Assembly: GCA_038849525.1 (NCBI GenBank)
Contig: JAWCMS010000001.1
Span: forward strand, 142,584 to 206,583
DNA from: Candidatus Pacearchaeota archaeon
Lineage (GTDB): Archaea > Nanobdellota > Nanobdellia > Pacearchaeales > JAHJTO01
DNA: 64,000 bases
Reading direction: 5' to 3'
Part shown: positions 22,927 to 64,000 of the stretch, one piece after another
How the letters are laid out: every line of letters begins with the position of its first letter
Numbering within the stretch: the first letter of the stretch is position 1
Position numbers and translations under genes: made by a program
Notes under the pieces: generated by a model
What the model saw: only the letters and a program-made list of their open reading frames with translations
Told to the model about the DNA's origin: nothing
Database searches by the model: none

Positions 22927-23080
22927 AAAATTTAAAAAGATTGTCAAAAATTTTATTTTCTTTTTTTATTTAATTTATAAATTTTTATATATTTTTATAT
23001 TATATATTATAAATATATTTTTCTAATATATTTTTTAAAAATAAATTATCTTATAAAATAAATAAATATTTTTAAATTTT

Positions 23081-23104
23081 GTTTCCAATGGAAATATAGG
23101 TCTG
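23081..23104. repeat. mini-ORB-like box 2 (TTCCAATGGAAA dyad)
   Basis: gTTTCCAATGGAAATATAgg contains the palindromic core TTCCA-ATGGAA, like the mini-ORB TTCCAGTGGAAA. Confidence 0.5.
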
Positions 23105-23232
23105 TATTATTATTTTTCATTTGAAATATATTTATAAAAGGAGCTTTTTTTAAAAAATAACAAAAAATGTAAAAGGAGGCAAAAGAGGCTAAGGATTTAA
23201 TAAATTTTATAATTTATTTTTAAGATAGCCTT

Positions 23233-25961: not shown

Positions 25962-25968
25962 TAAAAAC

Positions 25969-28900
25969 ATGCAACAATATTTTAAAGAAATAGAGAATAA
26001 AGTAAAGGTTGCTTATTCGATAGCTGGAGAAGCAAGAGCGAAAGGCTTAGATCCAGTGTCAATAGTAGAAATACCTCTGGCTACAAGTTTGGCTGAAAGA
26101 GTTACAGGATTAATTTCAACAAAATATCCTCAAGTTAGAAATTCTGGAATAGAAAAAAGGATTAAAGAACTAGAAAAACAATATGGTTTTCTTGACTCTG
26201 CTATTTGTTTACAAATTGCAGAAGAAGTTGCTAAAGAACGTTTTTGCAAATTCCAAAATATGGAAGAAGCATTAGATGCAGGAATAAGAATTGCATTTGC
26301 TTATATAACTCTTGGCGTTGTATCATCACCATTAGAAGGATTTACTCATTTTAAAATAAAGAAAACAATAGATGGAAAAGATTATATGGCTGTTTATTAT
26401 TCTGGGCCAATAAGGTCTGCTGGTTCAACTACAGCTGCTTTTTCTCTTTTAATTATAGATCATCTAAGAGAAGTTTTTGGATTCGCAAAATATGATCCTA
26501 CTGAACAAGAAATCAAAAGAATGATTACTGAGATATATGATTATCATGAAAGAGTTGCTAATCTACAATATTTACCTACTGAACAAGAAATATATTTTAT
26601 GTTTAAGAATTTACCTATACAAGTTACAGGGGATCCATCAGAAGAAAGAGAAGTTTCAAATTACAAAGATCTGGCCAGAATTGAAACAAATAAAATTAGG
26701 AATGGACCATGTCTTGTTTTAGGGGAAGGGCTGGCACAAAAATCTTTCAAAATTTTAAAGAGATTGAATCATCTAAGAGAAAAAGGTTTTAAACTAACGG
26801 ATTGGGATTGGTTAAAAGATTTTACTGAATTACAGAAAAAATTAATTGCCGAAAAAAAAGAGAAAGCAACGGGAACTTATATACAGGATATCGTTGCTGG
26901 AAGACCTGTTTTTTCTCACCCCTCTAGATCTGGAGGATTTAGGCTTAGGTACGGAAGGGCAAGAACATCAGGATATAGTGCTATTGCTATTTCTCCTTTA
27001 ACTATGGTTCTATTGAATAATTTTATTGCTATTGGAACACAAATAAAACTAGAAAAACCAACAAAAGCTGCAGCAGTAACTTCTTGTGATACAATAGAAG
27101 GTCCTATAGTAAAATTAAAAGATGGTTCGCTTGTTAAGATTAAAGATTTAAAAGAAGCAAATGAAATAAAACCTTATGTAGAAGAAATAGTTTATTTAGG
27201 AGATATATTAATTTCTTATGGGGATTTTTTGAATAGAAATCATATTCTTCTTCCTGCAGGATATAATGAAGAGTGGTGGTATGCAGAATTATTAGAAAAA
27301 GATAAAATAGAAGCAGAAAAAATAAACCCTTTAGATATAAGTCTTGATAAAGCAATAGAATTAAGTGAAAAATATGAAATTCCTTTACATCCAAAATACA
27401 TTTTTTACTGGTCACAAATAAATTACGAATTATTTTTTGCAATGTTAAAATGGCTTGAAAAAGCAAAAATAATAAACGGAAAATTAATTCTTGATTATAC
27501 TGAAAAAGAAAAAAAAGCAAAACGCGCTCTTGAATTGCTTGGAGTAGAGCATAAAAAAGAAGGAGACAAATTTGTTGTCGATGAAATAATAACAAAAGCA
27601 TTTTTTTTGAATTTGGGTAAACGTATAGAAGAAATCAACGAACTAATAAGACAACCAGAACAAAGAGAAGGAGTTCTTGAATTTATAAATTCTTTTTCTA
27701 AATATAAAATCAAAGATAAAGCAGGGACTTTTATAGGTGCGAGGATGGGTCGACCTGAAAAAGCAAAGTTGAGAAAACTTGTTGGTTCTCCACATGTTTT
27801 GTTTCCTGTAGGCGAAGCAGGAGGAAGAATGAGGAGTGTACAAGAAGCTATGAAATCTTATGTCGAAGCTGATTTTCCTATTTATTTCTGTGATAATTGT
27901 AAACAAGAAACCATTTATTTTATTTGTGAAAAATGTAATAATAAAACAAGGAAACTATGTTACTGTCCATTATGTGAAAGAATTGTAGGTGAAAATTGCC
28001 CTCAACATGGGGGGATACAAGGAGGAAAAGTTAAAACATTTATGCAAAAAAGAATTGATCTTAGTTATTATGTAAATAGTGCTTTAAATTATTTGAATAT
28101 CCAGAAAACTGATATACCAGAATTAATAAAAGGTGTTAGGGGAACAAGTTCTGAGGAACATATACCAGAACATATAGCAAAAGGAATTCTAAGAGCTCAG
28201 TTCTCACTTAATGTAAATAAAGATGGAACAATAAGATATGACGCAAGTGAAGTTCCGATTACACATTTTAAACCAAAAGAAATAGATACTGAAATAAAAA
28301 AATTAAAAGAGCTAGGATATACAAAAGATATTTTTGGAAAAGAACTAGTTGATAAAGAACAAATTTTATGTTTGAAGCCACAAGATATTATTCTCCCTTC
28401 ATGTCCTGAAACTCTTGATGAAAAAGCAGATGATGTTTTTGTAAATATTGCAAAATTTATTGATAATTTGCTTGTGAGATTTTACAAACAAAAACCATTT
28501 TATAATGTTAAATCAAGAGATGATTTAGTAGGACATTTAGTTGTTGGAATTGCTCCACATAACTGTGCGGGGGTAGTTGGAAGAATAATAGGGTTTAGTA
28601 AGACGCAAACTTTTTTGGCAAGCCCATATATGCATGCTGCAATGCGTAGAGATTGCGATGGCGATGAAGCTGCGATAATGTTACTTTTAGATTTACTGCT
28701 TAATTTTTCAAAAAAATTTTTACCTGCACATAGAGGAGGGACACAAGATGCACCTTTAGTTTTAAATGCAAGAATAAGAGCTTCTGAAGTTGATGATATG
28801 ATTCTTGATATGGATATTACAAAAAATTTACCATTAGAACTTTACAAAGCAGCTGAAGAGTTTAAATCTCCAAGTAGTATTAAGATTGAAAACATTGGTA

Positions 28901-29412
28901 CTAGGCTTGGAGAAGAGGAAAAAGATGCAAATGTTTTCGAGGATTTATGGTTTACTCATGATACTTTAGATATCAATAATGGAACTATTTGTTCTTCTTA
29001 TAAAACACTTGAAACAATGCAAGACAAAGTAAAAGCGCAGATGGAACTTGCAGAAAAAATTCGGGCTGTAGATACAACAGATGTTGCAAGGCTTGTTATC
29101 GAAAGACATTTTATTCGTGATATTAGGGGAAATTTGAGAAAATTTTCAGGACAGCAATTTCGCTGTGTTGATTGTAATACGAAATACAGAAGGCCACCTT
29201 TGACTGGCAAATGTTTAAATTGTAATGGAAGAATAATATTCACAATTGCTGAAGGTTCTATTGTTAAGTATCTTGAGCCTGCTCTTCAACTAGCTGAAAA
29301 ATATAATATCTCACCTTATCTTAAACAAAGTTTAGAATTAACAAAGTCTTACATCGAGAGTATTTTCGGTAAAGAATTAGAAAAACAGCAAGACTTAGAA
29401 AGGTGGTTTTAA
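25969..29412 (+). CDS. polC: DNA polymerase II (PolD) large catalytic subunit DP2
   Basis: 1147 aa. Zn fingers CDNCKQET...CEKCNNKT...CPLCE and C-terminal CVDCNTKY...CLNCNG. No intein-sized insertion. Confidence 0.85.
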   Translation: MQQYFKEIENKVKVAYSIAGEARAKGLDPVSIVEIPLATSLAERVTGLISTKYPQVRNSGIEKRIKELEKQYGFLDSAICLQIAEEVAKERFCKFQNMEEALDAGIRIAFAYITLGVVSSPLEGFTHFKIKKTIDGKDYMAVYYSGPIRSAGSTTAAFSLLIIDHLREVFGFAKYDPTEQEIKRMITEIYDYHERVANLQYLPTEQEIYFMFKNLPIQVTGDPSEEREVSNYKDLARIETNKIRNGPCLVLGEGLAQKSFKILKRLNHLREKGFKLTDWDWLKDFTELQKKLIAEKKEKATGTYIQDIVAGRPVFSHPSRSGGFRLRYGRARTSGYSAIAISPLTMVLLNNFIAIGTQIKLEKPTKAAAVTSCDTIEGPIVKLKDGSLVKIKDLKEANEIKPYVEEIVYLGDILISYGDFLNRNHILLPAGYNEEWWYAELLEKDKIEAEKINPLDISLDKAIELSEKYEIPLHPKYIFYWSQINYELFFAMLKWLEKAKIINGKLILDYTEKEKKAKRALELLGVEHKKEGDKFVVDEIITKAFFLNLGKRIEEINELIRQPEQREGVLEFINSFSKYKIKDKAGTFIGARMGRPEKAKLRKLVGSPHVLFPVGEAGGRMRSVQEAMKSYVEADFPIYFCDNCKQETIYFICEKCNNKTRKLCYCPLCERIVGENCPQHGGIQGGKVKTFMQKRIDLSYYVNSALNYLNIQKTDIPELIKGVRGTSSEEHIPEHIAKGILRAQFSLNVNKDGTIRYDASEVPITHFKPKEIDTEIKKLKELGYTKDIFGKELVDKEQILCLKPQDIILPSCPETLDEKADDVFVNIAKFIDNLLVRFYKQKPFYNVKSRDDLVGHLVVGIAPHNCAGVVGRIIGFSKTQTFLASPYMHAAMRRDCDGDEAAIMLLLDLLLNFSKKFLPAHRGGTQDAPLVLNARIRASEVDDMILDMDITKNLPLELYKAAEEFKSPSSIKIENIGTRLGEEEKDANVFEDLWFTHDTLDINNGTICSSYKTLETMQDKVKAQMELAEKIRAVDTTDVARLVIERHFIRDIRGNLRKFSGQQFRCVDCNTKYRRPPLTGKCLNCNGRIIFTIAEGSIVKYLEPALQLAEKYNISPYLKQSLELTKSYIESIFGKELEKQQDLERWF

Positions 29413-47946: not shown

Positions 47947-50241
47947 ATGATTTTCAGACCAGAAACAAAGTTATATTCTTATGAAGTAGTCAGAGAAGCA
48001 GGGCAGGATGTAATGTATATAAATTATATTGGACATCCAAGTGTACCTTCTATCGCTGATTCTGCAATTGTGATGGCAAGGACAATTGATAATCTAATAG
48101 AATCTCCAAGGGTTAGTAAAATTGTTTTTGTACAACAGAGAAATTATGTTTATGATCTTAATCAAACTTCATTACTCATAGAAATCGCACAGCTTTATAC
48201 TTTTCTCATCGAACAAGAAAAAATTCTTTCTCCAAAGAAATTAATTCCTTTTGGAGAGCAGCAATTTTTGCAGCAAAGGTATAATGCTATGAGGTGGCTG
48301 ATTTTAACTTTGTTAAAGCAAGATCCAATAGGTTGTTATATTGAAGCTAAGAGGTTATTAAGAGAAGAAAAAATAAATGCAGAAAGAATTGCTGCAGAGT
48401 ATGTTCATTCTGAAAATGCTTACATAAGATTACTAAGTAAAATTGTTGAAATGCTTGAAGGAACTAGGTTAATTAGAGAGGCTAGAGATATTGATATTGA
48501 AGCACATAAAATAGGAGACAGAGAAATTTATAGAAAATTTTTTAGACCAGATGTTGTTCCAAATTTCACTTTTACGAGATTAATGGCGAGTTTACCAATC
48601 GGAGCAGATATTTTAGATGAATATAAAGTAGAATCTGGATATGATAAGAGTTTAGTAACTATCTTAAAAATACCTGGAACTGGAAGACCTATTTACCATT
48701 TACAAAGTCCTGAATTTATGTTAGAAGAAAATTTTTACAGCTTAATCGATTTAGCAAGAAGTGTTTTAATTGAGCACAGGCCAAAAGCAGAAGAATTTAT
48801 CGATCCACAAAGAACAAGACAGGTTTTTTTTAATATATCTCGAGATTTATTAAGAGAATTAGCTGAAAGTAGAAAAATTTCTTTGTCTTACAGGCAACTT
48901 AACAAACTTGCAACAATTCTTGTTAGACATACAATCGGATTTGGCTTAATTGAAGTGCTTTTACAAGATGAAAGGTTACAAGATATTGTTGTAAATGCAC
49001 CTGTTTCACAAACGCCAATATTTGTAAGGCATCAGGATTTTGATGAATGTGTTACTAACATTATTCCTGCATATGAAGATGCAGAAGCGTGGGCTGCTCG
49101 TTTTAGATTAATTTCAGGAAGGCCTTTAGACGAAGCAAATCCTGTTCTTGATACTGATTTGGAGATAGAAAATGTAAGGGCAAGAGTAGCAATTATACAA
49201 CAACCATTGTCTCCGTATGGACTTGCTTATGCTTTAAGAAGACATAGAGAAAAGCCATGGACCTTACCTTTGTTCATAAAAAATAGGATGATAAACCCTA
49301 TAACTGCAGGATTATTAAGTTTTTTAATTGATGGTTCAAGAACAATTCTTTTTGCAGGGACAAGAAGTGCAGGAAAAACATCTTTGCTTGCCGCAGCAAT
49401 GCTTGAAATAATACCTAAATATAGAATAATAGTTATAGAAGATACATTAGAGATGCCCGTAAATGCATTTAAAAAACTGGGCTATGACATATTGAGAATG
49501 AAAGTTCGTTCTGCGTTGCTTAGAGAGAGCACTGAAATGGAAGCTGCTGACGGAATAAGAACGAGTTTGAGATTAGGAGATTCTTCTTTAATAGTTGGAG
49601 AAGTAAGAAGTGATGAAGCGAAAGCATTATATGAGGCAATGAGGATTGGAGCGTTAGCTAATGTTGTTGCAGGAACGATACATGGCGGCTCGCCATATGC
49701 TGTTTTTGATAGGGTTGTTAATGATTTAGGAGTGCCAATAACTTCATTTAAAGCAACCGATATCGTATTAGTTGCAAATCCGATAAAGAGTCCAGATGGG
49801 ATACATAGCTGGAGAAGAGTTACACAATTTGCAGAAATAAGGAAGCATTGGCAGAGAGATCCTTTGGAAGAAAAAGGTTTTGTTGACTTGTTAACTTATG
49901 ATGTAAAAAAAGATTCTTTAGAGCCAAGTACAGATTTAATAAACGGCGAGTCAGAAGTGATCAAAACAGTTGCAGGACAAGTAAAAGGATGGGCTGGAGA
50001 TTGGGATGCTGTATGGGATAATATTTTGCTGAGAGCAAATATAAAACAAGAATTAGTTGAAAAAGCAAAAATTACAGGTATAAAAGATCTACTTGAAGCT
50101 CCTTTTGTATTGAAGAGCAATAATATGTTTCATGAATTTTCAGATAAAATTACTAAGGAGATAGGCATTCCTGAAGGTAAAAGAGTATTTAGCGAATGGA
50201 AAGACTGGTTAAATGAAGAAATAAGAAAAAGAACTTTATAA
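47947..50241 (+). CDS. Type II/IV secretion-family ATPase (FlaI/PilB/VirB11-like) with long N-terminal extension
   Basis: Walker A GTRSAGKTS, Asp box RIIVIEDTLE, Walker B LIVGEVRSDEA, His box GTIHGGSP. 764 aa. Confidence 0.75.
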   Translation: MIFRPETKLYSYEVVREAGQDVMYINYIGHPSVPSIADSAIVMARTIDNLIESPRVSKIVFVQQRNYVYDLNQTSLLIEIAQLYTFLIEQEKILSPKKLIPFGEQQFLQQRYNAMRWLILTLLKQDPIGCYIEAKRLLREEKINAERIAAEYVHSENAYIRLLSKIVEMLEGTRLIREARDIDIEAHKIGDREIYRKFFRPDVVPNFTFTRLMASLPIGADILDEYKVESGYDKSLVTILKIPGTGRPIYHLQSPEFMLEENFYSLIDLARSVLIEHRPKAEEFIDPQRTRQVFFNISRDLLRELAESRKISLSYRQLNKLATILVRHTIGFGLIEVLLQDERLQDIVVNAPVSQTPIFVRHQDFDECVTNIIPAYEDAEAWAARFRLISGRPLDEANPVLDTDLEIENVRARVAIIQQPLSPYGLAYALRRHREKPWTLPLFIKNRMINPITAGLLSFLIDGSRTILFAGTRSAGKTSLLAAAMLEIIPKYRIIVIEDTLEMPVNAFKKLGYDILRMKVRSALLRESTEMEAADGIRTSLRLGDSSLIVGEVRSDEAKALYEAMRIGALANVVAGTIHGGSPYAVFDRVVNDLGVPITSFKATDIVLVANPIKSPDGIHSWRRVTQFAEIRKHWQRDPLEEKGFVDLLTYDVKKDSLEPSTDLINGESEVIKTVAGQVKGWAGDWDAVWDNILLRANIKQELVEKAKITGIKDLLEAPFVLKSNNMFHEFSDKITKEIGIPEGKRVFSEWKDWLNEEIRKRTL

Positions 50242-50252
50242 TCTAAATAAAA

Positions 50253-52376
50253 ATGGTAAATAAAAAGGTTGAAGAAATACTAAGGAGATATAGCTCACAG
50301 ATCGAAAGAGCAGTAAGGACTGAAAAGTTTGAGTCTGAATATTCAAAAGAATATCTTAAATTTAAAGAAGAACTTTCTCCAGAACTCTCAAACTATGAAA
50401 AGTTTGCAAAAAATGCTGGCAAAATAATAAAATTAAAAATAAATGAAAAAGATAAAGCAAAAATAAATGAACATTTGGAAAGAGCACATTTGGATGTTAA
50501 AGCAGAAGATGCTGTAGCATTTTCTCTTCTTTCTTTTATTATTTCACTTTTGATTTTTTCACTTTTAATTGCAACACTCTTTCTTTTAGATATTGAAGTT
50601 CCAATATTAATTATTATTCTTGCTTTTTTAATCTCTATTTTTATTTATTTTTATGTTTCTTCACTACCAGAAAAAATAAGCCAACAATGGAAATTAAAAG
50701 CAAGTTCTCAGATGGTTCCTGCAATTTTGTATATTGTTGTTTACATGAAACACACAAGCAATTTAGAGAGAGCAATTAAATTTGCAAGTCAGCATTTACA
50801 ACCTCCACTATCTCTTGATTTCAAAAAGATACTATGGGATGTTGAAACTGGAAAATATACAACAATAAAAGAGTCTTTAGATTCTTATCTTGAAGGCTGG
50901 AGAACATACAGCCCAGAATTTATAGAATCATTTCATCTTATTGAAAGTTCATTGTATGAGCCGAGCGAGGCAAGAAGGATTGCTGTTTTGGAAAAAGCAT
51001 TATCTGTCATTCTCGATGGGGTTTATGACAAAATGTTAAAATATACTCATGATGTTCAAGCACCTTTAACTAATCTTTATATGCTTGGTATTGTACTTCC
51101 AACATTAGCGATAGCCTTGTTACCTCTAGCTTCTACTTTACTTGCAGGTACAATAAAGTGGTGGTATGTTGCGATATTCTTTAATTTGATTATACCTTTT
51201 TTTGTTTATTATCTTACTTCTGGTGTTCTTGTAAAACGACCCGGAGGATATGGAGATACAGAAATGCTTGAGCTTAATCCAGAATATCCTTATTACAAAA
51301 GTAGCATTCATTATTACAAAGCTCTTATTGTTGCAATTCCTTTTTTTATAATTGGTATAATACCTTTGATGGTTTATTTTGGATTTTTCCCAGATTATAG
51401 TTTTAAAGAAATAGGAATGCAGTTTCCTTCTTTAGAAGAAATGAAAATATTTGGTTTTATAGATGGCAAAGGTCCTTTTGGTTTAGGTGCATTGATACTT
51501 AGCTTTTTTATTCCTCTTAGCATTGCATCTTTTTTATGGATTTCTTACTCATCAAAAACAAAAAAAATTTTAAAGATGAAAGAAGAGACCTTAAAGCTTG
51601 AAAGTGAATTTTCAAGTTCTTTATTTCAGCTTGGAAACAGACTGGGGGACAATATTCCAGCTGAAATGGCTTTTGGAAGAGTCGCTGAAAGTTCTAAGGG
51701 AACAGCAACAGAAGGTTTCTTTAGAACAGTCAACAGCAATATTCAGCAATTTGGAATGTCAGTAAAAGAAGCTATTTTTAATTCTAGTAGAGGAGCAATA
51801 ATCTACTATCCATCTGAACTTATCAGAACAAGCATGGAAATTCTTGTTGAATCTGTCAAACAAGGATTACAGGTTGCTGCAAATGCGATGATAAGCATTT
51901 CACAATATGTAAAAAATATCGGAAAAATAAATGAAAGGCTAAAGGATTTACTTGCAGATATAATAAGTAGTATGAAAAGCAATATGTCTTTCCTTGCACC
52001 TCTACTTGCAGGAATAGTTGTTGGCTTAGCAGCAATGATTACCACGATACTAACCAAATTGCAGCAAATGCTATCTCTTCCTGGAGGAGAAAATATCCCT
52101 CTTGCAGGTTCTACCTTAGGAAATTTAACAAAATCTTTTAATCTTGAAGCGATGATCCCTCCTTACTGGCTACAAATAGTAGTAGGAATATACTTAATAG
52201 AAATAATTTATATTTTAAGTATAACTCTTGTTTCAGTAGAGTCAGGAGTAGACAAATTAAAAGAAAAATCAGAAATTGCGAGAAATATGAAAGCCGGAAT
52301 CTTGCTTTATATACTTACTGCTCTTGCAGCATCATTGATATTATCAATGCTTGCAAGTATAGCTATAACTGTATAA
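50253..52376 (+). CDS. FlaJ/TadC/PilC-like polytopic membrane platform protein
   Basis: 707 aa. Two blocks of TM helices separated by cytoplasmic domains. Immediately follows the ATPase. Confidence 0.65.
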   Translation: MVNKKVEEILRRYSSQIERAVRTEKFESEYSKEYLKFKEELSPELSNYEKFAKNAGKIIKLKINEKDKAKINEHLERAHLDVKAEDAVAFSLLSFIISLLIFSLLIATLFLLDIEVPILIIILAFLISIFIYFYVSSLPEKISQQWKLKASSQMVPAILYIVVYMKHTSNLERAIKFASQHLQPPLSLDFKKILWDVETGKYTTIKESLDSYLEGWRTYSPEFIESFHLIESSLYEPSEARRIAVLEKALSVILDGVYDKMLKYTHDVQAPLTNLYMLGIVLPTLAIALLPLASTLLAGTIKWWYVAIFFNLIIPFFVYYLTSGVLVKRPGGYGDTEMLELNPEYPYYKSSIHYYKALIVAIPFFIIGIIPLMVYFGFFPDYSFKEIGMQFPSLEEMKIFGFIDGKGPFGLGALILSFFIPLSIASFLWISYSSKTKKILKMKEETLKLESEFSSSLFQLGNRLGDNIPAEMAFGRVAESSKGTATEGFFRTVNSNIQQFGMSVKEAIFNSSRGAIIYYPSELIRTSMEILVESVKQGLQVAANAMISISQYVKNIGKINERLKDLLADIISSMKSNMSFLAPLLAGIVVGLAAMITTILTKLQQMLSLPGGENIPLAGSTLGNLTKSFNLEAMIPPYWLQIVVGIYLIEIIYILSITLVSVESGVDKLKEKSEIARNMKAGILLYILTALAASLILSMLASIAITV

Positions 52377-52414
52377 ATAAGCAAGTAAAAATAGAATAAA
52401 AATATAAAGATATA

Positions 52415-53341
52415 GTGGATGATAAAAATATGAAAAATAAAAAAGGACTTACTATCACAACAATTGTAATAACTATTGTGATAATTATGTCTTTTATAAT
52501 TCTTTTAGCAGTTGTCAATCAAATAGTTGAACTAATTCCTTCTACTTTTAACAAAGAAGCATGTCGTGATTCTGTAATTGCAAGAGCAGCAATTAAGAAT
52601 CTTCCTGTTGGAGGAGAATTGGCTACAAAAAAAATTCCGTTAAAGTGTAAAACAGAATATATCTGCCTTACAATGGGGGGAGAATGTCCAACTGGTTATA
52701 ATAAAATATCTGTAAGAAATAAAGAAGACATAAACAAAGAGATTGCAAATGCGATACATGACTGTTGGTGGATGTTTGGAGAAGGAAAACTAAATTTTCT
52801 GTCTTCAGAATGGATAACAAAAGAAAAGTGTATTATTTGTTCTATAATTGCATTTGACGACAAAATTCAACAAGAGTATCCTGAAATAGCCGGATTAAAC
52901 AATTATTTATCTTATAACTTAGTTCCTAATAAAAATGTTACCTATTTACAGTATATTTCAAATAATATGGATGTACAACCTTCAATAAGTGAGAATGATA
53001 GATATTCTACTAAAGAGAAATATTCTATAATCTTCGGATATGTTGCCAAAGGAAATCTTGCAAAAAGAGTTGGTTGTATAGTTGGGGGAGGGGCAGGAGC
53101 TACAGTAGGATTTACCTTAGGAAGCGTAGTTCCTATAATTGGAAATATCGCTGGAACAGGGCTTGGTTTTACAATCGGTGCAGCAGGCTGTTACTTTGGT
53201 GCCAAAGGTGGAACAGAAGCAATAAATTTTATAAATAATTTTTTCGGAGATTACAGCAATACGGTATTGTTACAATTCTTACAATTTAACCAAAAAAACA
53301 TTGAACAGTTCGGATGTGATAAAATTGAATCAATTCCTTAA
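52415..53341 (+). CDS. large pilin-like protein with class III (prepilin) signal peptide and Cys/Gly-rich C-terminus
   Basis: N-terminus MKNKKG|LTITTIVITIVII (K-G cleavage motif plus hydrophobic helix). Confidence 0.5.
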   Translation: MDDKNMKNKKGLTITTIVITIVIIMSFIILLAVVNQIVELIPSTFNKEACRDSVIARAAIKNLPVGGELATKKIPLKCKTEYICLTMGGECPTGYNKISVRNKEDINKEIANAIHDCWWMFGEGKLNFLSSEWITKEKCIICSIIAFDDKIQQEYPEIAGLNNYLSYNLVPNKNVTYLQYISNNMDVQPSISENDRYSTKEKYSIIFGYVAKGNLAKRVGCIVGGGAGATVGFTLGSVVPIIGNIAGTGLGFTIGAAGCYFGAKGGTEAINFINNFFGDYSNTVLLQFLQFNQKNIEQFGCDKIESIP

Positions 53342-54147
53342 TTAAGTCTATTCAAATTTGTATAGAACTCTTTTACACTTAAATTATATCCTGGATCTAA
53401 ACCTACATCCATTACTATAATGTTATTTTTTGTTTTTAATATTAAAAGAGGGTAGTTGTCTTCTAATTTATATTTCCATTTCAACCTAGCACCCTTAACA
53501 TACGTCCTGAGTGGTTTTTCACTTTTTGAGACTTTAATATTTTTAATTCGAGACTGCACAGCCCGGCTAAAATTAAATTGATTGGCATTTATATTTTTTA
53601 TTGTATCAACTTCTTCTTGATTGATGTTAACATTAAACTTCTTTAATGACAATACTTTTTCTTCTAAACATGTACCTTTTCCATTTTCTATTTCACTTAT
53701 TTCTTTTTCGGTAAAATCAAATTCAGAAAGAAGATATGGTTTATCTTTAAATCTTCTATAGGTATTAGTTCTTACGTTTTCATAACCGTAAAGCGCATTG
53801 ATCTTTTTTTCAGTAAAATCATTGTCAACAAAAATATTGGCGGTAACATCAACATAGTCCCCCTTTATAAAAATTTTTGGCACTATAAGAAACTCTACTT
53901 TATTGTTATCAGCGAATTTGTTATAAAGAGAAAATAATGATTTCTCTTGAACAATTTCTATAGGTGCAAGAGTCCATCCCCAATATACGCTATCAAGATA
54001 CTCATTACCATTTAAACGTAAATTTGTTATTGTCCTATAATCTATAAAAATTGGAGATTTAAACTTTGAAAATTCTTTTTTTTGGCATCCAGTAATTGTC
54101 AGATAAGCTGCAAGAAAGCCAATCTTAGCAAGTTTAGATATACTCAT
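53338..54147 (-). CDS. putative lipoprotein / secreted protein
   Basis: N-terminus LAAYLTITGCQK is lipobox-like. Confidence 0.35.
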   Translation of the reverse strand: MSISKLAKIGFLAAYLTITGCQKKEFSKFKSPIFIDYRTITNLRLNGNEYLDSVYWGWTLAPIEIVQEKSLFSLYNKFADNNKVEFLIVPKIFIKGDYVDVTANIFVDNDFTEKKINALYGYENVRTNTYRRFKDKPYLLSEFDFTEKEISEIENGKGTCLEEKVLSLKKFNVNINQEEVDTIKNINANQFNFSRAVQSRIKNIKVSKSEKPLRTYVKGARLKWKYKLEDNYPLLILKTKNNIIVMDVGLDPGYNLSVKEFYTNLNRLN

Positions 54148-54299
54148 TTCATAATAAAGATATTTGTTTTATTTAAGGATTTATATAGAAAAAAAATATA
54201 TTTATATAAATTAACATTTGGTTAGCTGATTTTTGATGGTTCATGATAAACACCTCTTTTATTATCTCTTTAAGTTTCTATACCTAAAAGATATACTTT

Positions 54300-55274
54300 T
54301 TAGCATGTAGCAGTTGAAGGAATATGATTTGGCAGCCCTATTCTTGCCCAATCAAAATTACTCGGATCTATTTTTCTATCTCTCATGCCTTGAAGAGTTT
54401 CATAATGGCCAATGATATGTTTATCATCATATTTTATATCAGGCCATCTTTTTATTATATCTTTAATTAAATTATTTAATGATGAGTACTGTGCATCTGT
54501 ATATCCAAAATTTTTGCATCCTGTGCTAACAAGTTCTATACCTATTGAAAAATCATTGTATGGGTATCCAGCATGGATAGCTTTTTGAGTTTCATCAACA
54601 AGATAATATATTTTGCCATCTCTATCTATTATATAATGAACAGAATTTCCAGAATTTTTGAGAAAATTATAAGCCTCTATAAAATTTGTTCCAGCGGTAT
54701 GATGCAAGACGATAGTATTAATTTTTGTATCTTTATCTCTTGGTTTTGATTGAAGGGTATAAGATGTATTGACTTTTATTTCTGGTATAGTTGTTCTTTC
54801 ATATTCTTTTAGTGTTCCTTGTTCTGAAATAACACTTAAAATAGAATATTCTGTAGGGTTATTTTTAATATAAAGTTCCATTATCTTAATTTGCATGGAA
54901 ATGCTTTTACCATCTTTTTTTAATGGTTTTTCTATATTATTACAGTATTTTTCTTCTGATTTAACTGGACAGTCTTTATCTTTGCAGATACATATACAAT
55001 TTTGGCTAGCACATATTATGGGGCTACTTTCTATTTTATCATAAGAAACAAGCCAGTATCCTTGAGGAGCATAAACAATAAAAGAATCGATATTTTCATT
55101 TTTTATATCTCTTAAAAAATTTATTAGATTTGTTAAAGTCTCTTTTGCTTGTTGTTCCTCTTTACTTTTTAAAAAATTACCATAGATGTTAGTGCATGCG
55201 CCTATTACTGCTATTATAAGAAAAACTGTAAGAAGCAGATACATTACTTCTTTTAATAAAGACATTTCGGGCAT
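54300..55274 (-). CDS. Secreted N-acetylmuramoyl-L-alanine amidase (Amidase_2/PGRP-type) with Cys-rich linker
   Basis: C-terminal domain IVLHHTAGTNF...SVHYIIDRDGKIYYLVD...AIHAG...NDFSIGIELV...HYE...RKIDPSNFDW matches the H-H/T-A-G...H-A-G...IGIE pattern of T7-lysozyme/AmiD-type amidases. N-terminal signal/TM plus C-x-C-x-C-x-C region. Confidence 0.7.
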   Translation of the reverse strand: MPEMSLLKEVMYLLLTVFLIIAVIGACTNIYGNFLKSKEEQQAKETLTNLINFLRDIKNENIDSFIVYAPQGYWLVSYDKIESSPIICASQNCICICKDKDCPVKSEEKYCNNIEKPLKKDGKSISMQIKIMELYIKNNPTEYSILSVISEQGTLKEYERTTIPEIKVNTSYTLQSKPRDKDTKINTIVLHHTAGTNFIEAYNFLKNSGNSVHYIIDRDGKIYYLVDETQKAIHAGYPYNDFSIGIELVSTGCKNFGYTDAQYSSLNNLIKDIIKRWPDIKYDDKHIIGHYETLQGMRDRKIDPSNFDWARIGLPNHIPSTATC

Positions 55275-55372
55275 TTTGCTAAAAAGAAAAAGAATTATTT
55301 AAATTTACTTGTTTATCTTATAAACAAATAAGAAAAAATGACTATTGACTAGTTACTAACCCAAATGGCTTT

Positions 55373-55648
55373 TTAGCAACTAGTAATCTCTTTACAATAT
55401 TTTACACCAATATTTCTTATTGTAACAGTTGCATTATCAAATAACTCTTGTTTGCCTACAGCCCTTGCACTCGTGCATATATCATCACATCTTGCTTTTG
55501 CTTGAGACAATTCTATTTCTGTCGTACCCATAATTTTATCCCAAAGATTTTTCATTCCTCCAGAAAAGGCTGCGGCTACTACAACTAAAACAATCAAAGC
55601 CAAGATTATTATTATAATAGTCTCGATTGAAATAGCCCCTCTTTTCAT
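55373..55648 (-). CDS. archaeal type IV pilin (class III signal peptide, DUF361-like)
   Basis: MKRG|AISIETIIIIILALIVLVVVAAAF is the classic archaeal prepilin motif. Confidence 0.65.
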   Translation of the reverse strand: MKRGAISIETIIIIILALIVLVVVAAAFSGGMKNLWDKIMGTTEIELSQAKARCDDICTSARAVGKQELFDNATVTIRNIGVKYCKEITSC

Positions 55649-55715
55649 GTTAGTTAGAATAAAAAAGTATATTTAAATATTTCTAATCCTTCAATTAAAC
55701 TAGGAATATCTAAAC

Positions 55716-57893
55716 ATGTTAGAGAGTATATTATTAAAAACAAAGAAAGCAATTCTTCCTTTAGCCATTTCTTCTACTATTCTTTCATTTTCAAATGCAT
55801 CTACACCATACATCTCAATTGTTAATCTAGATAATAAAAATTATAGAGTCTTATTTGATGAAAATAACAAACCCCATGTTAATGCTGAAAATCTAGAGAT
55901 TGCAAAAAAAGCTGCTTTTAAAGCCCTAATCAATCAAAAGTCAGAGGAGCTTGAGACGCATGTAAAATCTCTGACTTATGAGTCTCTTCAAACAATCTTT
56001 GGACCTATTGAAAGAGGCAAGGAAATTGACAATAAAATCAATACTATTGATAAATATCTTGGTTTAGACGAAGATATTCCTTTCTGGATTTTCTCTGTTC
56101 TTGAATATAGGGAAAAATTCGATAAAAAGCTTCTTGCTGATGTTTTTGAAGCATGGAAATATAGGAATAATGCATTAAAATTTTTGAAAAGCATTGAAGA
56201 AAGAGAAGATTTAGCTAATACCTACAAAAATCTTTGCATAATAGATGAAAATATTCTTGATATGACTGAAAATATAAAAGAAAAAAATGAACTTACAAGT
56301 ATTAAATTTATTCTTGATAAGAAACACATAGATTTTTTTCTTGATAAACTTTTAAGAACATGGAATTTAGAAGAAGCTAAAGAAAAAATTGAAGAAATAA
56401 AAAAAGAACTTGAAAATCCTGCTGTTAGAGAATTAAAAGAAGATTTAGAGAAAACATTAGAAGAAAGTCGAGATTATAGGAAGAATAAAGAAAAATCAAA
56501 AGAAAAAGAGATAGGAAAAATTATAAGAGATCAAGATATTATCTCGGAAACTCCTGAAAAAATTTTCCAAAAAAATTTTATTGTTCCTTTATTTACTCAA
56601 TCAAATCCTTCTTTTCAAACTTTTGAAAATCAAGAAAAAGCATCTTTAGATATTTCAATTGAAAAATATAATTTAAAGGAAGGTTGTATCTTAGAATTAA
56701 TAGTTCTTTCAGATAAAGTATTCAATAAAGCAAAAACAAATATTTTTTGCATACATTTACCAGAAACAAGAATAGGAAAGATAGGCCAAAAAGCATACAC
56801 TTTTAGTACAAGATACAGGCAGTTTAGACAATGGGAGGAAATTCTACCATATGGCCAAGATAAGTATATTCTTCTTGAGATGGATGCAACAAAATGGGCA
56901 TTCAACAAAATGATTTCGATGACAATGAAAGGAAATATAATAAAAACAAAAAATCTTCTGAGATTTATAGGTGAAAATATTTACGGAGTTGAACTTGAAA
57001 GAGATGTGAATAAGCTAAATGATAATGTTATAAAAAAATTAAATGATGCATACTCTGTTCATGGTATAAAAATTAATCCTGTAGGGGCTTTTAGGCAGGC
57101 TCAAGGTTATCTTTTTCTTATTCCGATATATAATTTTCAAAAAGACGTTATTCTCTATATGAACTTAACGATGCAATCTGGTTTGATACCATCAGAAAAA
57201 GGCTTCGGTGTACCTTCGGGATATGAGGAAGCAGAAGGAAGACTTGAAGATTTAGTGATTTCAGTAAATAAAAAAACAGCTTTTCAAGGTTTTATAACAG
57301 CCGAAGAACAGCAACAAGAAAAATATGATAAAAGTCTTATTAATTTCCTAGAGAATAAAAAAAATGAATTTGAAAAAGAAAATCCTTTCGCCACTTATGA
57401 CTATGAAATTACAGCTTATGATAAAAACAAAGCTGAAGTTAAAGTTAACTTGACATTTACGAGAAAAATTGGGCTACAAGAATGGAAAAACGAAGCTCTT
57501 AGTTTGGGGACTAAAATCCTTAATTCAAACCCTGCTGATTTAGGAAGAATTCTTGAACAAAGCAATACTGATTTATTAAACTCTGAAAAAAAAGAATTTC
57601 ATTCTTTAAAACTTTGGCTAGAAAAACAAGGAGAAAGGTGGTATGAAAAATATTCTACAGAAAAAGATATCAAAAGAAGTTTAGAGATAATAAGAAGAAT
57701 GATTAATATTTATTACGAAAATCATAAAAAGTATCCTCAAGCCCTTAAAGATTTAAGAGAAGATTTTAATGAAAAAAGTCCAGAAGTATTAGAATTATGT
57801 GAGATCGGTTCAAGAACTTTTGTAAGAGAAAGTGAACTCATTTATGATAAAAACAATGGAAAAATTTATTATAAACCATTTCTTAAATGGTAG
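55716..57893 (+). CDS. large secreted hypothetical protein
   Basis: 725 aa. N-terminal signal-like segment ILPLAISSTILSFSNAS. Confidence 0.45.
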   Translation: MLESILLKTKKAILPLAISSTILSFSNASTPYISIVNLDNKNYRVLFDENNKPHVNAENLEIAKKAAFKALINQKSEELETHVKSLTYESLQTIFGPIERGKEIDNKINTIDKYLGLDEDIPFWIFSVLEYREKFDKKLLADVFEAWKYRNNALKFLKSIEEREDLANTYKNLCIIDENILDMTENIKEKNELTSIKFILDKKHIDFFLDKLLRTWNLEEAKEKIEEIKKELENPAVRELKEDLEKTLEESRDYRKNKEKSKEKEIGKIIRDQDIISETPEKIFQKNFIVPLFTQSNPSFQTFENQEKASLDISIEKYNLKEGCILELIVLSDKVFNKAKTNIFCIHLPETRIGKIGQKAYTFSTRYRQFRQWEEILPYGQDKYILLEMDATKWAFNKMISMTMKGNIIKTKNLLRFIGENIYGVELERDVNKLNDNVIKKLNDAYSVHGIKINPVGAFRQAQGYLFLIPIYNFQKDVILYMNLTMQSGLIPSEKGFGVPSGYEEAEGRLEDLVISVNKKTAFQGFITAEEQQQEKYDKSLINFLENKKNEFEKENPFATYDYEITAYDKNKAEVKVNLTFTRKIGLQEWKNEALSLGTKILNSNPADLGRILEQSNTDLLNSEKKEFHSLKLWLEKQGERWYEKYSTEKDIKRSLEIIRRMINIYYENHKKYPQALKDLREDFNEKSPEVLELCEIGSRTFVRESELIYDKNNGKIYYKPFLKW

Positions 57894-57899
57894 TAGATT

Positions 57900-58520
57900 T
57901 TAACAAGCCTCTATTTTAGAGAAAAAGGCTTGCTGCTCTTCTTTGCTTTTACCAAAAATAAATAAATTTTCAAATCCTTTTTCTTTATATACAATAAATG
58001 ATAAAGTAGAAGAATTTTTATAAATGTTTGGTGAGATTATTTCATCGCCATTAAATTCTGCTATTTTTTCAAATGTTATCAAATTTTCTATTTCTTCTTT
58101 TATTTCTATTATATTTTCATCTTTGTTTAAAACTCCTGTAATAGACACATTATTCATGGTATAACTTCTAAAAGTTTTATCATTATATTTGAAATTAATA
58201 TTTGCATAACGATTAATTAAAGTACCCCTATTTATTATCTGCATGCTTACTTCTTTAGGAAGATTTACGAAAGCATCTTTACACAAGCAATTGTTTTTTT
58301 GCTTTAATTTGCATTCTTCAAGTTTTGAAATAAAATTATCTACTGCGCTATTGATAGAATATTTGGTAGTTACAGGCAGTGATTGAAAATCTATTTTTGT
58401 TTCTGGTGCTAAGTAAGTATTATAAAAAGAGTAAATCAACAAAAATATTATTGCTACTGCGATTATAACAAGTATAAGATTTATTAATTTTTCAAAAGTT
58501 AGCTCCATTTTATCTTCCAA
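57900..58520 (-). CDS. hypothetical protein with N-terminal TM helix
   Basis: 206 aa with LINLILVIIAVAIIFLLIYSF. Confidence 0.4.
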   Translation of the reverse strand: MEDKMELTFEKLINLILVIIAVAIIFLLIYSFYNTYLAPETKIDFQSLPVTTKYSINSAVDNFISKLEECKLKQKNNCLCKDAFVNLPKEVSMQIINRGTLINRYANINFKYNDKTFRSYTMNNVSITGVLNKDENIIEIKEEIENLITFEKIAEFNGDEIISPNIYKNSSTLSFIVYKEKGFENLFIFGKSKEEQQAFFSKIEAC

Positions 58521-58668
58521 ATCTAAAAATATCTAATATATTCTGAAGGGCTGCAGCTAATCTCCCTGTTGCTAACGAATTTATAAACAAAATAAGTATC
58601 ACAAGCACAGCCAGTCCTATTATCCATTTTCCAATTTCAGCAAATTCGAATCCTTTTTTATTTTTCAT
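58510..58668 (-). CDS. small pilin-like protein (52 aa) with class III signal peptide. Not in the ORF track.
   Basis: Manual translation: MKNKKG|FEFAEIGKWIIGLAVLVILILFINSLATGRLAAALQNILDIFRFGR. Confidence 0.4.
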   Translation of the reverse strand: MKNKKGFEFAEIGKWIIGLAVLVILILFINSLATGRLAAALQNILDIFRFGR

Positions 58669-58830
58669 GTTAGTAACGAAGGAATTATCTTTTTTAAAAT
58701 TACATAATAGGCAAGCATAATAATTATTATATAAAGCAGTATTTTTAGTAACAGTTCTAAACTTAATGAACCTTTTTTCATAATTCTTAATGATAAATAT
58801 TGTTAATAAACTTTATTAATTAGATATTGT

Positions 58831-59169
58831 TTGAAAAATAAGAAAATGAACAGAGGTGGGACTGAAGATTTGTTGTGGAATCTAGGACTTATTCTTATCT
58901 TTCTTTTTGTTGCAGGAATATTATTTGTATGGGAATCAAATCAAGTAACAGGAAAGGCTGTTAAATCAGAAATTATTGCAAAACAGACAGCATTGCTTAT
59001 TGATAGTGGTAAACCAGGAACAATAATATTTGTTGATGCAAATATTACTATAGAAGGAAATAAAATAATTGCATATTATGAAAATAGCAAATTTGAATAT
59101 TCATTTTTTAATAAGAATAAAATTTCATATAAGCAAACAGGAAGAGGAACTGAAATTAAGATAGAATGA
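58831..59169 (+). CDS. pilin-like / secreted small protein
   Basis: N-terminus MKNKKMNRGG|TEDLLWNLGLILIFLFVAGILFV. Atypical class III motif. Confidence 0.4.
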   Translation: MKNKKMNRGGTEDLLWNLGLILIFLFVAGILFVWESNQVTGKAVKSEIIAKQTALLIDSGKPGTIIFVDANITIEGNKIIAYYENSKFEYSFFNKNKISYKQTGRGTEIKIE

Positions 59170-59630
59170 ATCGCAAAGGACAGGTTTTGAGTGAAGGAAT
59201 AATACTAGTATGGAAAATTTTTCTTATCATATTTGTAATATTATTTGTTGTAATTACAATAACACCTGTTTTTACAACGAAATTAGATATAAGGCAGCCA
59301 GAAGGTCTGCTTATTGCAAAGAGTATTCTTGAATGTGTTTCCAATAATGGAATTGTAGAACAAGGTATTGATTTTAAAAATTGCATAATTTTAGATGAAA
59401 ATGAATACTATATTAATACTTCTTTAACCTCATTTGATTCAAATTTGAAAAAAGAAAGTATTTTCGGAATAGATTTAGAGGTCCTATGCTCTTTTCCTGG
59501 AAAATATTTATCATCACCTTCATGTATAAGACAAAAATATTATGTTTTAATTAACAACAATGGGAAAATAGAAAAAGGAACTCTTAATTTACTTATTGGA
59601 ATAAAAAAATTTGCTGAAAATGTCAAATAA
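59166..59630 (+). CDS. pilin-like protein (class III signal peptide)
   Basis: MNRKG|QVLSEGIILVWKIFLIIFVILFVV. 4-bp overlaps suggest an operon. Confidence 0.55.
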   Translation: MNRKGQVLSEGIILVWKIFLIIFVILFVVITITPVFTTKLDIRQPEGLLIAKSILECVSNNGIVEQGIDFKNCIILDENEYYINTSLTSFDSNLKKESIFGIDLEVLCSFPGKYLSSPSCIRQKYYVLINNNGKIEKGTLNLLIGIKKFAENVK

Positions 59631-60078
59631 AAAGGGTCAATTATTAGGAGAAACAGCAGCATTAATTGTAGCAACTATCATAATATTCATTTTGCTAGTT
59701 GTTTTCTTTTTTCTTATAAAAAGTATTTCAATAGCAAAAGGAACTGATTCAGAAACTATTCTATTACAAGAACAAAATATAGTTTCATTAATGGCTTATT
59801 TAAACACTCCTGTTAATATTCAAGAACAAGAGATGAAAATGATTGATTTAATTAGACTTACATCTATTGATAAGAATTATAAACTTTTATTGGAAGAAAA
59901 AACAAAAGAAATTTTTAATAAGGTTTATGGAAATGATTATCAATTTTGGATTATTCAAGATAGTAAGACTATAATTCAAATAAGTCCATTAGAAACTACG
60001 AAATATGGGTGGGTTCAGACTAAAATGGAATTGCCTGGAAAAATAATTGTCTATCTCCAACTAAAAAAACTAAAATGA
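59611..60078 (+). CDS. pilin-like protein (class III signal peptide)
   Basis: MSNKKG|QLLGETAALIVATIIIFILLVVFFF. Confidence 0.55.
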   Translation: MLKMSNKKGQLLGETAALIVATIIIFILLVVFFFLIKSISIAKGTDSETILLQEQNIVSLMAYLNTPVNIQEQEMKMIDLIRLTSIDKNYKLLLEEKTKEIFNKVYGNDYQFWIIQDSKTIIQISPLETTKYGWVQTKMELPGKIIVYLQLKKLK

Positions 60079-60785
60079 ACAGCAAATCACAGATTCCAGA
60101 AGCTGTATTAATTTTGATAGCTCTTGTTGTTTGTGGGACTACTTTATATTATATAGTAACATATGGAACAATAAAAGCAGAAACAATAAATATAAATAAA
60201 TCTATTGATATATTTAATGAAGCAGAAAAATTTGATTATTATATTCGCGATTTCTCTGACATGGCTTTACAAGAAAGCTATGCTGAAGTTACTAAAAAAC
60301 CCTTGGTTTGTCAGGAGCAAATAGGAACAGTAGCTATCTGGAGTGAGAAATGCAAACCTAATAATCAAGAAATTAAAAATAAAATAAAGTTAAAATTTGA
60401 TGAAAAATTATCAAAAATTGGAAAACTTTTTAGTTCTGAGATAAAAGAAAAAATAAATGTAAAATTTGAACCAATTATTTTTAATAATTCTAATAAAAAT
60501 AAGTTTGTTTCTTATAATATAAGTTATACATTATTTCCATCATTTTCTCTTGATTATCCAAAAATTGATTTCGAAGAGATATATTCTGCAATTATAACAA
60601 AAAAAGTAGAATGTGAAAATAAAGACAATCAGCAGGAATGCATGCAGCAATTAAATTTTGAAAATTGGAATTTTAGGCTGGAGTCAAGCACAAATTATTA
60701 TCTCTTTACTCTTTATTCAAAAAAATCATATTTTTATGATAATTCATTCAAACCTGTTGAATTTTCATTTGCCATAAAAAAATAA
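60075..60785 (+). CDS. pilin-like protein (probable class III signal peptide)
   Basis: MNSKS|QIPEAVLILIALVVCGTTLYYIV. Confidence 0.45.
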   Translation: MNSKSQIPEAVLILIALVVCGTTLYYIVTYGTIKAETININKSIDIFNEAEKFDYYIRDFSDMALQESYAEVTKKPLVCQEQIGTVAIWSEKCKPNNQEIKNKIKLKFDEKLSKIGKLFSSEIKEKINVKFEPIIFNNSNKNKFVSYNISYTLFPSFSLDYPKIDFEEIYSAIITKKVECENKDNQQECMQQLNFENWNFRLESSTNYYLFTLYSKKSYFYDNSFKPVEFSFAIKK

Positions 60786-62932: not shown

Positions 62933-63042
62933 GCCCCTGTCGGCTAACGGATAGGCCACGACCTTGCGGTATAAAACTAATGTTTTTATTTCCTTAAAAA
63001 TGCAGAAAGGTTGAAATCGGGGTTCGAATCCTCGTAGGGGCA
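62933..63042 (+). tRNA. tRNA with intron of about 38 nt in anticodon loop. Anticodon GCG (Arg) under the canonical 37/38 intron position.
   Basis: Acceptor GCCCCTG/TAGGGGC (one G-U) with discriminator A. Anticodon stem CGACC...GGTTG, loop TTGCGG[intron]A. T-arm CGGGG-TTCGAAT-CCTCG. Confidence 0.7.
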
Positions 63043-63124
63043 TATTAAATAGTCATTAATTAGTAGTTAAAGCGAAAGTTTTAAATAAGGTTTTTTTCTT
63101 TAAGTATTCTCTTAAAAAATTAAA

Positions 63125-63832
63125 ATGGAAATTATTATAAATAAATTTAAAGAATTATTCAAGATAGATTCTATTGAAACAACTGAGATAGACATTGATA
63201 ACACACCTCTTACCAATAATGTTAAAAAAGAACTTCTTGATAATTGCAAACAAAGCATGGGAAAAATAAAGGCCTACTTTAAGATTCTTAAAAATATGGA
63301 CGATTCCTATACATTTGAGGGAGCTTTAGTATATCGCGACAATGGCAAAAATAAAATACTCTATCTAAATCAAAATTTTCGTCGCCCCCCTGTTCAAGGA
63401 ACTATAATAAGCCATATGATGCCGAATGAAGAATTATCTTGGCATGAATATGCAGACAGTTACAAAGAAATGGCTTTAAAACTAGAAAAGTATCTTTTTC
63501 CAAATGAGTCAAAAAATAATGAAAATGGATATGATCGTATTTTTATAGAAATCAAAAACAGATTTGGGTTGCATGCAAGAGCCGCAGGTTTATTTGTTAA
63601 AGAAGCAACAAAATACAATTCAGAGATTTATGTAAGAAATGGAAGAGAAACTGCATTTGCAAGCAAAGAAATAGATGGAAAAAATTATGTTGATGGTAAA
63701 TCAATAATGAGCCTTTTGACATTAGCAGCTGAAAAAGGAAGCATTCTTGAAATAATTGTAAAAGGTGATGACTCAAAAAAAGCAATAGAAGGCCTTACCA
63801 ACTTAATAAATAATAAATTCTATGAAGACTAA
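63125..63832 (+). CDS. Two-domain protein: N-terminal domain of unknown function plus C-terminal HPr-like phosphocarrier domain
   Basis: C-terminal 90 aa: IKNRFGLHARAAGLFVKEATKYNSEIYVRNGRETA...NGKSIMSLLTLAAEKGSILEIIVKGDDSKKAIEGL. Matches the HPr fold signature (H-A-R-P/A-A, KS-I/L-M, G...G.D...A). Confidence 0.55.
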   Translation: MEIIINKFKELFKIDSIETTEIDIDNTPLTNNVKKELLDNCKQSMGKIKAYFKILKNMDDSYTFEGALVYRDNGKNKILYLNQNFRRPPVQGTIISHMMPNEELSWHEYADSYKEMALKLEKYLFPNESKNNENGYDRIFIEIKNRFGLHARAAGLFVKEATKYNSEIYVRNGRETAFASKEIDGKNYVDGKSIMSLLTLAAEKGSILEIIVKGDDSKKAIEGLTNLINNKFYED

Positions 63833-63865: not shown

Positions 63866-64000
63866 TGAAATGTGTGAGTTGCGGCAAAAATTTTGTAAAA
63901 GGGGTTTGTTTTATATGCCCCGAGTGTGGCAAACGAAAAATTGCTAGATGTTTTGAATGCAAGAAACTAAATGTTACTTATAAATGCGAATGTGGTTTTC
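63866..64000 (+). CDS. partial ORF (5' portion), Zn-ribbon (C-x2-C...C-x2-C repeats). Runs off the window.
   Basis: MKCVSCGKNF...CPECGKRK...CFECKK... Confidence 0.3.

Follow-up and report, generated by a model that had tools for sequence, protein, structure and literature searches.

We analyzed a 64,000-nucleotide stretch of a 400,615-bp contig from a tiny, symbiotic-type Candidatus Pacearchaeota archaeon (here called the window, to which positions refer unless another contig is named) and describe a gene close to its downstream end that fuses an HPr-family phosphocarrier domain to an N-terminal domain without a family match. The open reading frame (ORF) begins at the earliest start codon past the upstream stop and encodes 235 amino acids (aa) followed by a stop codon. 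As an annotation, the HPr domain is not new: the GenBank entry, MEM2956199.1, is already labeled automatically as [quoted passage not shown] The novelty lies in the new architecture that this familiar phosphocarrier domain has joined and in its unusual phyletic and genomic setting. In the literature on HPr and the phosphoenolpyruvate (PEP):sugar phosphotransferase system (PTS) in DPANN archaea and Pacearchaeota, we found no description of this fusion architecture or of HPr in Pacearchaeota. We consider it virtually certain that the protein is a real HPr-domain fusion. Its features are as follows.

63125 to 63832, forward strand: complete gene for the orphan-domain–HPr fusion, 235 aa (GenBank MEM2956199.1)
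63125 to 63532, forward strand: N-terminal orphan domain, aa 1 to 136, as modeled with AlphaFold2 (AF2); no family match
63533 to 63829, forward strand: HPr-family phosphocarrier domain, aa 137 to 235 (Pfam match, 141 to 229), from Pfam, TIGR, PDB, and AF2/Foldseek comparisons
63572 to 63580, forward strand: codons for His150-Ala151-Arg152, read from the sequence and equivalent to the active-site residues His15 and Arg17 of HPr (His150 codon, 63572 to 63574)
63635 to 63670, forward strand: family-specific insertion of 12 residues (R171 to E182) between beta2 and beta3 of the HPr domain, making that hairpin longer, from alignment
63701 to 63703, forward strand: codon for Ser193 within GKSIM, equivalent to the regulatory Ser46 of HPr, read from the sequence and aligned to Ser46 of 3le1 and Crh

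The C-terminal HPr domain

By profile and predicted fold, the C-terminal domain is a bona fide HPr phosphocarrier domain in which the His, Arg, and Ser residues are kept. Residues 141 to 229 matched Pfam PF00381 (PTS-HPr) at 78.5 bits (E = 4e-22; cut-off, 23), and the score against TIGR01003 was 67.4 bits (cut-off, 47.9). The original prediction had read an HPr signature at residues ∼145 to 235 from three motifs, all of which we located: GLHARAAGLFVKEA at 148 to 161, KSIMSLLTL at 192 to 200, and GDDSKKAIEGL at 214 to 224. The active-site pattern G-[LIM]-H-[AT]-R-[PA] is present as GLHARA at residues 148 to 153 and the Ser46 pattern K-S-[IL]-[MF] within GKSIM at 191 to 195. The top solved relative by sequence was HPr of Thermoanaerobacter tengcongensis (3le1, E = 9e-15; 3le1/3le5, E ∼1e-14), followed by Crh and other HPrs.

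An AF2 model of this domain, built from six family sequences, adopted the expected fold, the open-faced beta-sandwich of the HPr family (beta-alpha-beta-beta-alpha-beta-alpha), with a predicted local distance difference test score (pLDDT) of 83 to 94 over most of residues 136 to 229. In a Foldseek search, it matched 37 solved HPr, Crh, and NPr chains at E ≤ 1e-3, and the best superpositions on solved HPrs had target-normalized template modeling (TM) scores of 0.85 to 0.92 and root mean square deviations of 1.1 to 2.7 Å. Profile score, fold, His15/Arg17, and Ser46, which are all the criteria that could be tested, place the domain in the HPr family. All members of the fusion family carry the 12-residue insertion, which neither the closest bacterial HPrs nor solved HPrs have; in the AF2 model, extra strands at 181 to 183 and 186 to 190 lie at the lengthened hairpin.

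The N-terminal domain

The N-terminal part of the protein is a conserved alpha/beta domain that was found only fused to HPr among 1.84 billion cluster representatives. An AF2 model from 12 sequences reached a pLDDT of 73.7 and a predicted TM score of 0.64, with five concordant models at 70.5 to 73.7. The predicted order is an N-terminal helix followed by beta-alpha-beta-beta-beta-alpha-beta-alpha, and then a low-confidence linker whose end is the conserved ENGY motif. The modeled elements comprise a helix at residues 2 to 12, a strand at 18 to 23, a helix at 35 to 40, strands at 48 to 56, 62 to 72, and 75 to 85, a short helix at 94 to 97, a strand at 103 to 110, and a helix at 113 to 124.

The original prediction had described this domain as uncharacterized, and our searches agree. 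No Pfam, PHROGs, or PADLOC family was common to more than one of the 12 members, no NCBIfam family matched, and a sequence search of the PDB returned no match. A Foldseek search of the AF2 model against PDB and BFVD gave nothing below E = 1e-3 and TM scores of at most 0.36. We rejected an identity as an EIIA, EIIB, or FruB M domain, since the 12 N-terminal domains had no match to an EIIA or EIIB Pfam family at E ≤ 10 and the hhalign probability against FruB was 0.1%. A phage or defense domain was likewise rejected, as PHROGs and PADLOC provided no shared family.

As a separate observation, the consensus of the N-terminal helix, MxNLxNxLKELFGL (residues 1 to 15, window 63125 to 63169), is similar to the sequence that closes the HPr domain, its C-terminal helix and tail (LxxLIxNKFGED). 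Global hhalign paired residues 1 to 15 with residues 221 to 235 (window 63785 to 63829) at a nonsignificant probability, and the resemblance may be chance or the trace of a duplication.

Family size, conservation, and selection

The family is very small. A word-indexed search of 5.8 billion proteins recovered only six full-length relatives (41 to 100% identity), and an exhaustive HMMER profile search of the 1.84 billion cluster representatives with the N-terminal domain alone recovered only six clusters (50% identity), all of 229 to 253 aa and hence each with an HPr domain. In total, about 12 to 15 sequences were found among more than 15 billion proteins, and the identical two-domain architecture was present in 12 sequences of 208 to 253 aa. 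A DNA-pattern search of metagenome contigs with GK[KN]Y[VI]DGKSIM yielded only three short contigs, whose context offered nothing new, and a profile search of genome contigs with the full-length alignment returned, among the matches listed, bacterial HPr-only proteins and no fusion-family member. The fusion, a two-domain cytoplasmic protein, is specific to the lineage of Pacearchaeota-type DPANN archaea.

The 12 sequences are 26 to 58% identical overall, and residues N145, G148, H150, Y164, Y188, S193, A202, G214, and F232 are invariant. The conservation of the phosphorylatable His and Ser, on which the original prediction had staked its assignment, therefore extends to every family sequence in the alignment; Arg152 is kept in 11 and replaced by Lys in the remaining one. 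Retention of these residues at such divergence argues that phosphotransfer chemistry is still selected. Between the window gene and its counterpart on L002, the closest pair, we estimated nonsynonymous (dN) and synonymous (dS) divergences of 0.30 and 1.65 for the N-terminal domain (dN/dS, ∼0.18) and of 0.26 and 1.31 for the HPr domain (dN/dS, ∼0.20). Both domains are under purifying selection, and these ratios indicate that both halves are translated and constrained.

Genomic context and the search for PTS partners

The host replicon is unmistakably archaeal. The window encodes ribosomal proteins S9, L13, L18e, S11, S13, and S4, together with Rpo3 (with a 4Fe-4S insert), Rpo4, Orc1/Cdc6, both subunits of PolD (DP1 and DP2), Lhr, Hef/XPF-type proteins, a class I (Trp/Tyr-type) aminoacyl-tRNA synthetase, RPA, and RadA. 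We base the assignment on Rpo3, Rpo4, Orc1/Cdc6, PolD DP1/DP2, RadA, RPA, aEF-1beta (encoded just beyond the window), and an intron-containing tRNA, and it supports the claim that the fusion resides in an archaeon. The G+C content of the fusion gene (29.8%) is close to that of the window (28.7%).

The original prediction had also noted that no Enzyme I (EI), Enzyme II (EII), or HprK was visible nearby, and wider inspection bore this out. We covered ∼74 kb, comprising the window and 10 kb downstream, plus 10 kb around each of three other family members. On the upstream side, extension from ribosomal protein S9 yielded nothing further, as the Logan contig stops at that point. Family searches of the ∼60 window ORFs of at least 90 aa turned up no PTS, HprK, or Dha match, and no EI, EII, HprK, or Dha gene was found in the 10 kb downstream. 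The rpoN, ptsN, and ptsP context of NPr was also absent from the window and these 10 kb. No PTS gene lies within 10 kb of the three other family members, including the divergent member P0012, which has a different neighborhood.

Downstream of the window end are genes for aEF-1beta, a HIT protein, a prepilin peptidase, and a geranylgeranyl-reductase-like flavoprotein. Close relatives share the gene order RPA-RadA-variable-fusion-aEF1beta-HIT-peptidase A24. In P0012, the fusion gene stands between a PAC2 chaperone gene and a gene for a Xer-like integrase, amid archaeal ribosomal protein genes. We considered the HIT-family protein and aEF-1beta as functional partners and rejected them, as the linkage is gone in P0012.

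The fusion gene is probably monocistronic. A candidate archaeal TATA box lies upstream of it:

63080 to 63087, forward strand: candidate TATA box TTTAAATA, read from the sequence, 37 nt upstream of the fusion-gene ATG

Across the window, at 29% G+C, this motif is not enriched (24 found versus 35 expected), and several of its copies are located 20 to 45 nt upstream of gene starts. Its position suggests that it may serve as the fusion gene's own promoter. Further upstream, 82 nt from the fusion gene, is an intron-containing tRNA gene (62933 to 63042, forward strand) that scored 39.4 bits against Rfam RF00005 and was missed by ARAGORN. By hand reading, it has the anticodon GCG (tRNA-Arg) and an intron of ∼38 to 41 nt after the anticodon loop.

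Several other features of the region were recorded in passing. A Cys-rich zinc-ribbon ORF (MKCVSCGKNF...CPECGK...CFECKK...CECGF; 63867 to 64000, forward strand) runs off the window end and is directly upstream of aEF-1beta (L001, 1467 to 1739); the Logan contig has no gene call for it, and the two genes resemble the Zn-ribbon/aEF-1beta pair that archaea conserve. A type IV pilus-like locus (47947 to 60785) encodes a 764-aa PilB/T2SSE-type ATPase, large unannotated proteins of 707 and 725 aa, a run of small pilin-like ORFs with N-terminal hydrophobic helices, and an Amidase_2 (peptidoglycan amidase-like) protein (54300 to 55274); in the relative L002, the same kind of pilin-like run precedes RPA-RadA. 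Genes for Orc1/Cdc6, the PolD small subunit (DP1), and the PolD large subunit (DP2) are consecutive at 23233 to 29412, and the 800-nt gap upstream (∼22430 to 23230) might contain a replication origin. A Xer-like tyrosine recombinase is encoded at 6842 to 7648 on the reverse strand; the Xer-like recombinase gene of P0012 is immediately downstream of the HPr fusion (L007, 10837 to 11658), and any tie between the two copies is probably coincidental. Finally, a 487-aa protein (11144 to 12607, forward strand) combines DUF2779 with a weak Cas4-like nuclease domain.

Relation to known HPr systems and origin of the domain

The HPr domain most resembles the general HPrs of the PTS (PtsH), represented by 3le1/3lfg and by the proteins P0013/P0014/P0022 from uncultured bacteria. 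It shares with them the family, the fold (TM score, ∼0.9), the GLHAR(A/P)A and KSIM motifs, and the C-terminal KFGED tail, and it is 40 to 41% identical to T. tengcongensis HPr (3lfg/3le1). General HPrs are stand-alone proteins of 85 to 95 aa encoded adjacent to ptsI, hprK, and EII genes, whereas the fusion has 136 additional N-terminal residues and the 12-residue hairpin insertion, is archaeal, and has no PTS neighbor.

The original prediction had compared the domain with NPr and Crh, and neither assignment held as a matter of subfamily. NPr (PtsO), an HPr paralogue that functions in regulation rather than sugar transport, is our working model for the fusion; however, it is a single-domain protein, the fusion scored only 39.8 bits against the NPr equivalog NF008146 (cut-off, 119), and the NPr structure 5t17 was matched only at E = 0.016; the domain is closer to general HPrs than to NPr. 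Crh of Bacillus has the HPr fold with Ser46, and PDB Crh chains matched the fusion at ∼1e-8, but Crh has Gln at position 15 and works only via Ser-P with CcpA, whereas the fusion family keeps an invariant His. E. coli FruB/FPr (IIA-Fru-M-HPr) and DhaM likewise are larger polypeptides that end in an HPr domain. The FruB HPr domain is 28% identical to that of the fusion (E = 2e-10), yet the N-terminal domain of the fusion is unrelated to the FruB IIA and M domains or to any EIIA/EIIB Pfam family, and the score against the DhaM equivalog was 15.6 bits (cut-off, 520). Haloarchaeal and nanohaloarchaeal HPrs (Haloferax, Haloarcula, and Ca. Nanohalovita) are also archaeal proteins of bacterial origin (PMC2405797, PMC10266531), but they are single-domain and lie within complete EI-HPr-EIIABC clusters, and the fusion scored 39.4 bits against their model NF041319 (cut-off, 140). 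With His present, equivalog scores below cut-off, and no EIIA/M N-terminal domain, the fusion belongs to none of the Crh, NPr, FPr/FruB-DhaM, or haloarchaeal subfamilies.

The best stand-alone relatives are HPrs of 91 to 92 aa on bacterial contigs (P0013/P0014/P0022), with 53% identity across the whole domain and 57 to 60% outside the insertion. Their genes lie in rpoN-hpf-ptsN-hprK-rapZ-EIIA/B/C/D(Man)-HPr-ptsI clusters, and some of these relatives share with the fusion a Pro18-to-Ala substitution. Scores against the equivalogs for E. coli HPr, FruB, and DhaM were far below the cut-offs. Since the closest relatives of the module are general HPrs whose genes neighbor hprK and ptsI, we infer that it came from bacteria, and the low score against the haloarchaeal model points to an acquisition independent of the haloarchaeal PTS. 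The simplest reading of these comparisons is that a DPANN lineage acquired a bacterial general HPr by an independent horizontal transfer, which would have been followed by insertion, fusion, and compositional amelioration.

Proposed function and alternatives

We tentatively propose, with a confidence somewhat short of even, that the fusion protein has a regulatory, non-transport phosphocarrier role. Regulation is the most likely role because PTS transport genes were absent at every neighborhood examined and because, as the original prediction had asserted for archaea at large, the PTS is rare, being reported as not common in DPANN archaea with one nanohaloarchaeal exception (PMC10266531). The HPr module would then serve no sugar-transporting PTS and would instead be a self-contained regulatory phosphocarrier. 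His150 would receive a phosphoryl group from a PEP-dependent EI-type donor encoded elsewhere, and/or an ATP-dependent kinase would act on Ser193. Binding by the N-terminal domain or by the HPr surface itself would then change with the phosphorylation state, and the N-terminal domain would act as an output, targeting, or oligomerization module. The scheme is drawn by analogy with NPr and with HPr acting outside the PTS, which control bacterial enzymes and regulators; glycogen phosphorylase is one of the non-PTS enzymes known to be regulated by bacterial HPr (PMC13324651). Some bacteria, Bartonella and Ureaplasma among them, are known to carry an orphan ptsH with no ptsI (PMC2405797). The label “novel signaling protein,” suggested by the original prediction, is a reasonable but conjectural one.

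Several points weigh against a regulatory role. The ∼74 kb inspected compares with a contig that alone spans 400,615 bp, and EI or a full PTS could be encoded elsewhere. No phosphodonor, kinase, partner, target, or output activity was identified in the loci inspected, and the functional part of the proposal is wholly inferential. No functional neighbor is conserved across contexts; the shared synteny is limited to close relatives and consists of housekeeping genes. None of the His, Cys, or Asp positions in the N-terminal domain is invariant across the 12-sequence alignment, which leaves no such residue to hint at a catalytic or phospho-accepting role, and the AF2 model of this domain is only moderately confident, so the lack of fold matches is soft evidence and provisional. 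The conservation of His and Ser may owe something to a recent bacterial origin.

An alternative that we consider unlikely but credible is that the protein is an ordinary general HPr of a complete PTS or of DhaKLM, with its partner genes (ptsI, EII, or dhaKLM) elsewhere in the genome and the N-terminal domain as a lineage-specific decoration. The catalytic His and Arg and the Ser are intact, the nearest relatives are general HPrs adjoining ptsI and mannose-type EII genes, and the limited span inspected leaves room for such partners. However, ptsH is normally linked to ptsI and EII genes, yet four different neighborhoods contained no PTS gene. Pacearchaeota-type genomes are small and metabolically reduced, and the scarcity of the PTS in DPANN archaea noted above also counts against a complete system.

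We rate as rather improbable a phosphorylation-independent scaffold, in which the HPr fold is kept solely as a protein-binding module, as unphosphorylated HPr is on some bacterial targets, and His150 and Ser193 are conserved for structure or binding. Such a role would fit the absence of donor or kinase genes from the neighborhoods examined, the presence of the solved Rsd-HPr complex (4xwj) among the fold matches, and the insertion adjoining the Ser46 region, which changes the canonical surface. Crh, with Gln15, shows that His15 is readily lost once His phosphotransfer is dispensable, yet all 12 sequences keep the His, even at overall identities as low as 26%, with a near-invariant Arg17, which suggests that His150 is still phosphorylated.

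A bolder form of the regulatory proposal, which we hold to be quite improbable, is an HPr-based phospho-switch that operates without a cognate EI in a reduced DPANN genome. It might be charged by a non-PTS PEP-utilizing enzyme of the PPDK/PEP-synthase type or by a Ser kinase, or the episymbiont might use it to plug into the PTS/HprK signaling of bacteria, either a host or the donor lineage. Output or targeting would then fall to the orphan N-terminal domain, which could be a second HPr copy in decay.

Whether the N-terminal domain is such a copy, that is, a degenerate HPr-like duplicate without His and Ser in a tandem HPr, concerns origin and is compatible with the other alternatives; we regard it as doubtful, a lead rather than a finding. 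With the insertion hairpin included, the HPr domain has the same element order as the N-terminal domain (beta-alpha-beta-beta-beta-alpha-beta-alpha), and the sole hhalign match between the two profiles sets beta5-alpha3 of the N-terminal domain in register with beta4-alpha3 of HPr. The score of this match, 15.6 versus 10.5 ± 2.0 for column shuffles, was reached by 2 of 100 shuffles and is marginal; column shuffles destroy helical periodicity, so the excess may be generic. The hhalign probability was at most 1%, Pfam PTS-HPr matched none of the 12 N-terminal domains at E ≤ 10, and no HPr structure appeared in the top 50 Foldseek matches of the N-terminal model.

An artifact, whether bacterial contamination, a chimeric assembly, or two genes merged through sequencing or gene-calling error, would accord with the bacterial type of the HPr domain but has a negligible probability given that the architecture recurs in 12 sequences from independent samples and assemblers, with conserved archaeal synteny, native base composition, and purifying selection on both domains.

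Significance

HPr is the hub of bacterial carbon signaling, and to our knowledge it has in essence been seen in archaea only as part of complete PTS clusters that haloarchaea and a few other groups gained by horizontal transfer. The fusion family adds an orphan domain for which we found no relatives in sequence or fold. Should ptsI be encoded in another part of these genomes, what remains is an ordinary HPr with an unusual domain architecture. If EI is truly absent, the protein would point to a role for the HPr phospho-switch outside the PTS, a use of this fold that would be new for archaea, and it would provide a handle on signaling in organisms of almost unknown physiology.
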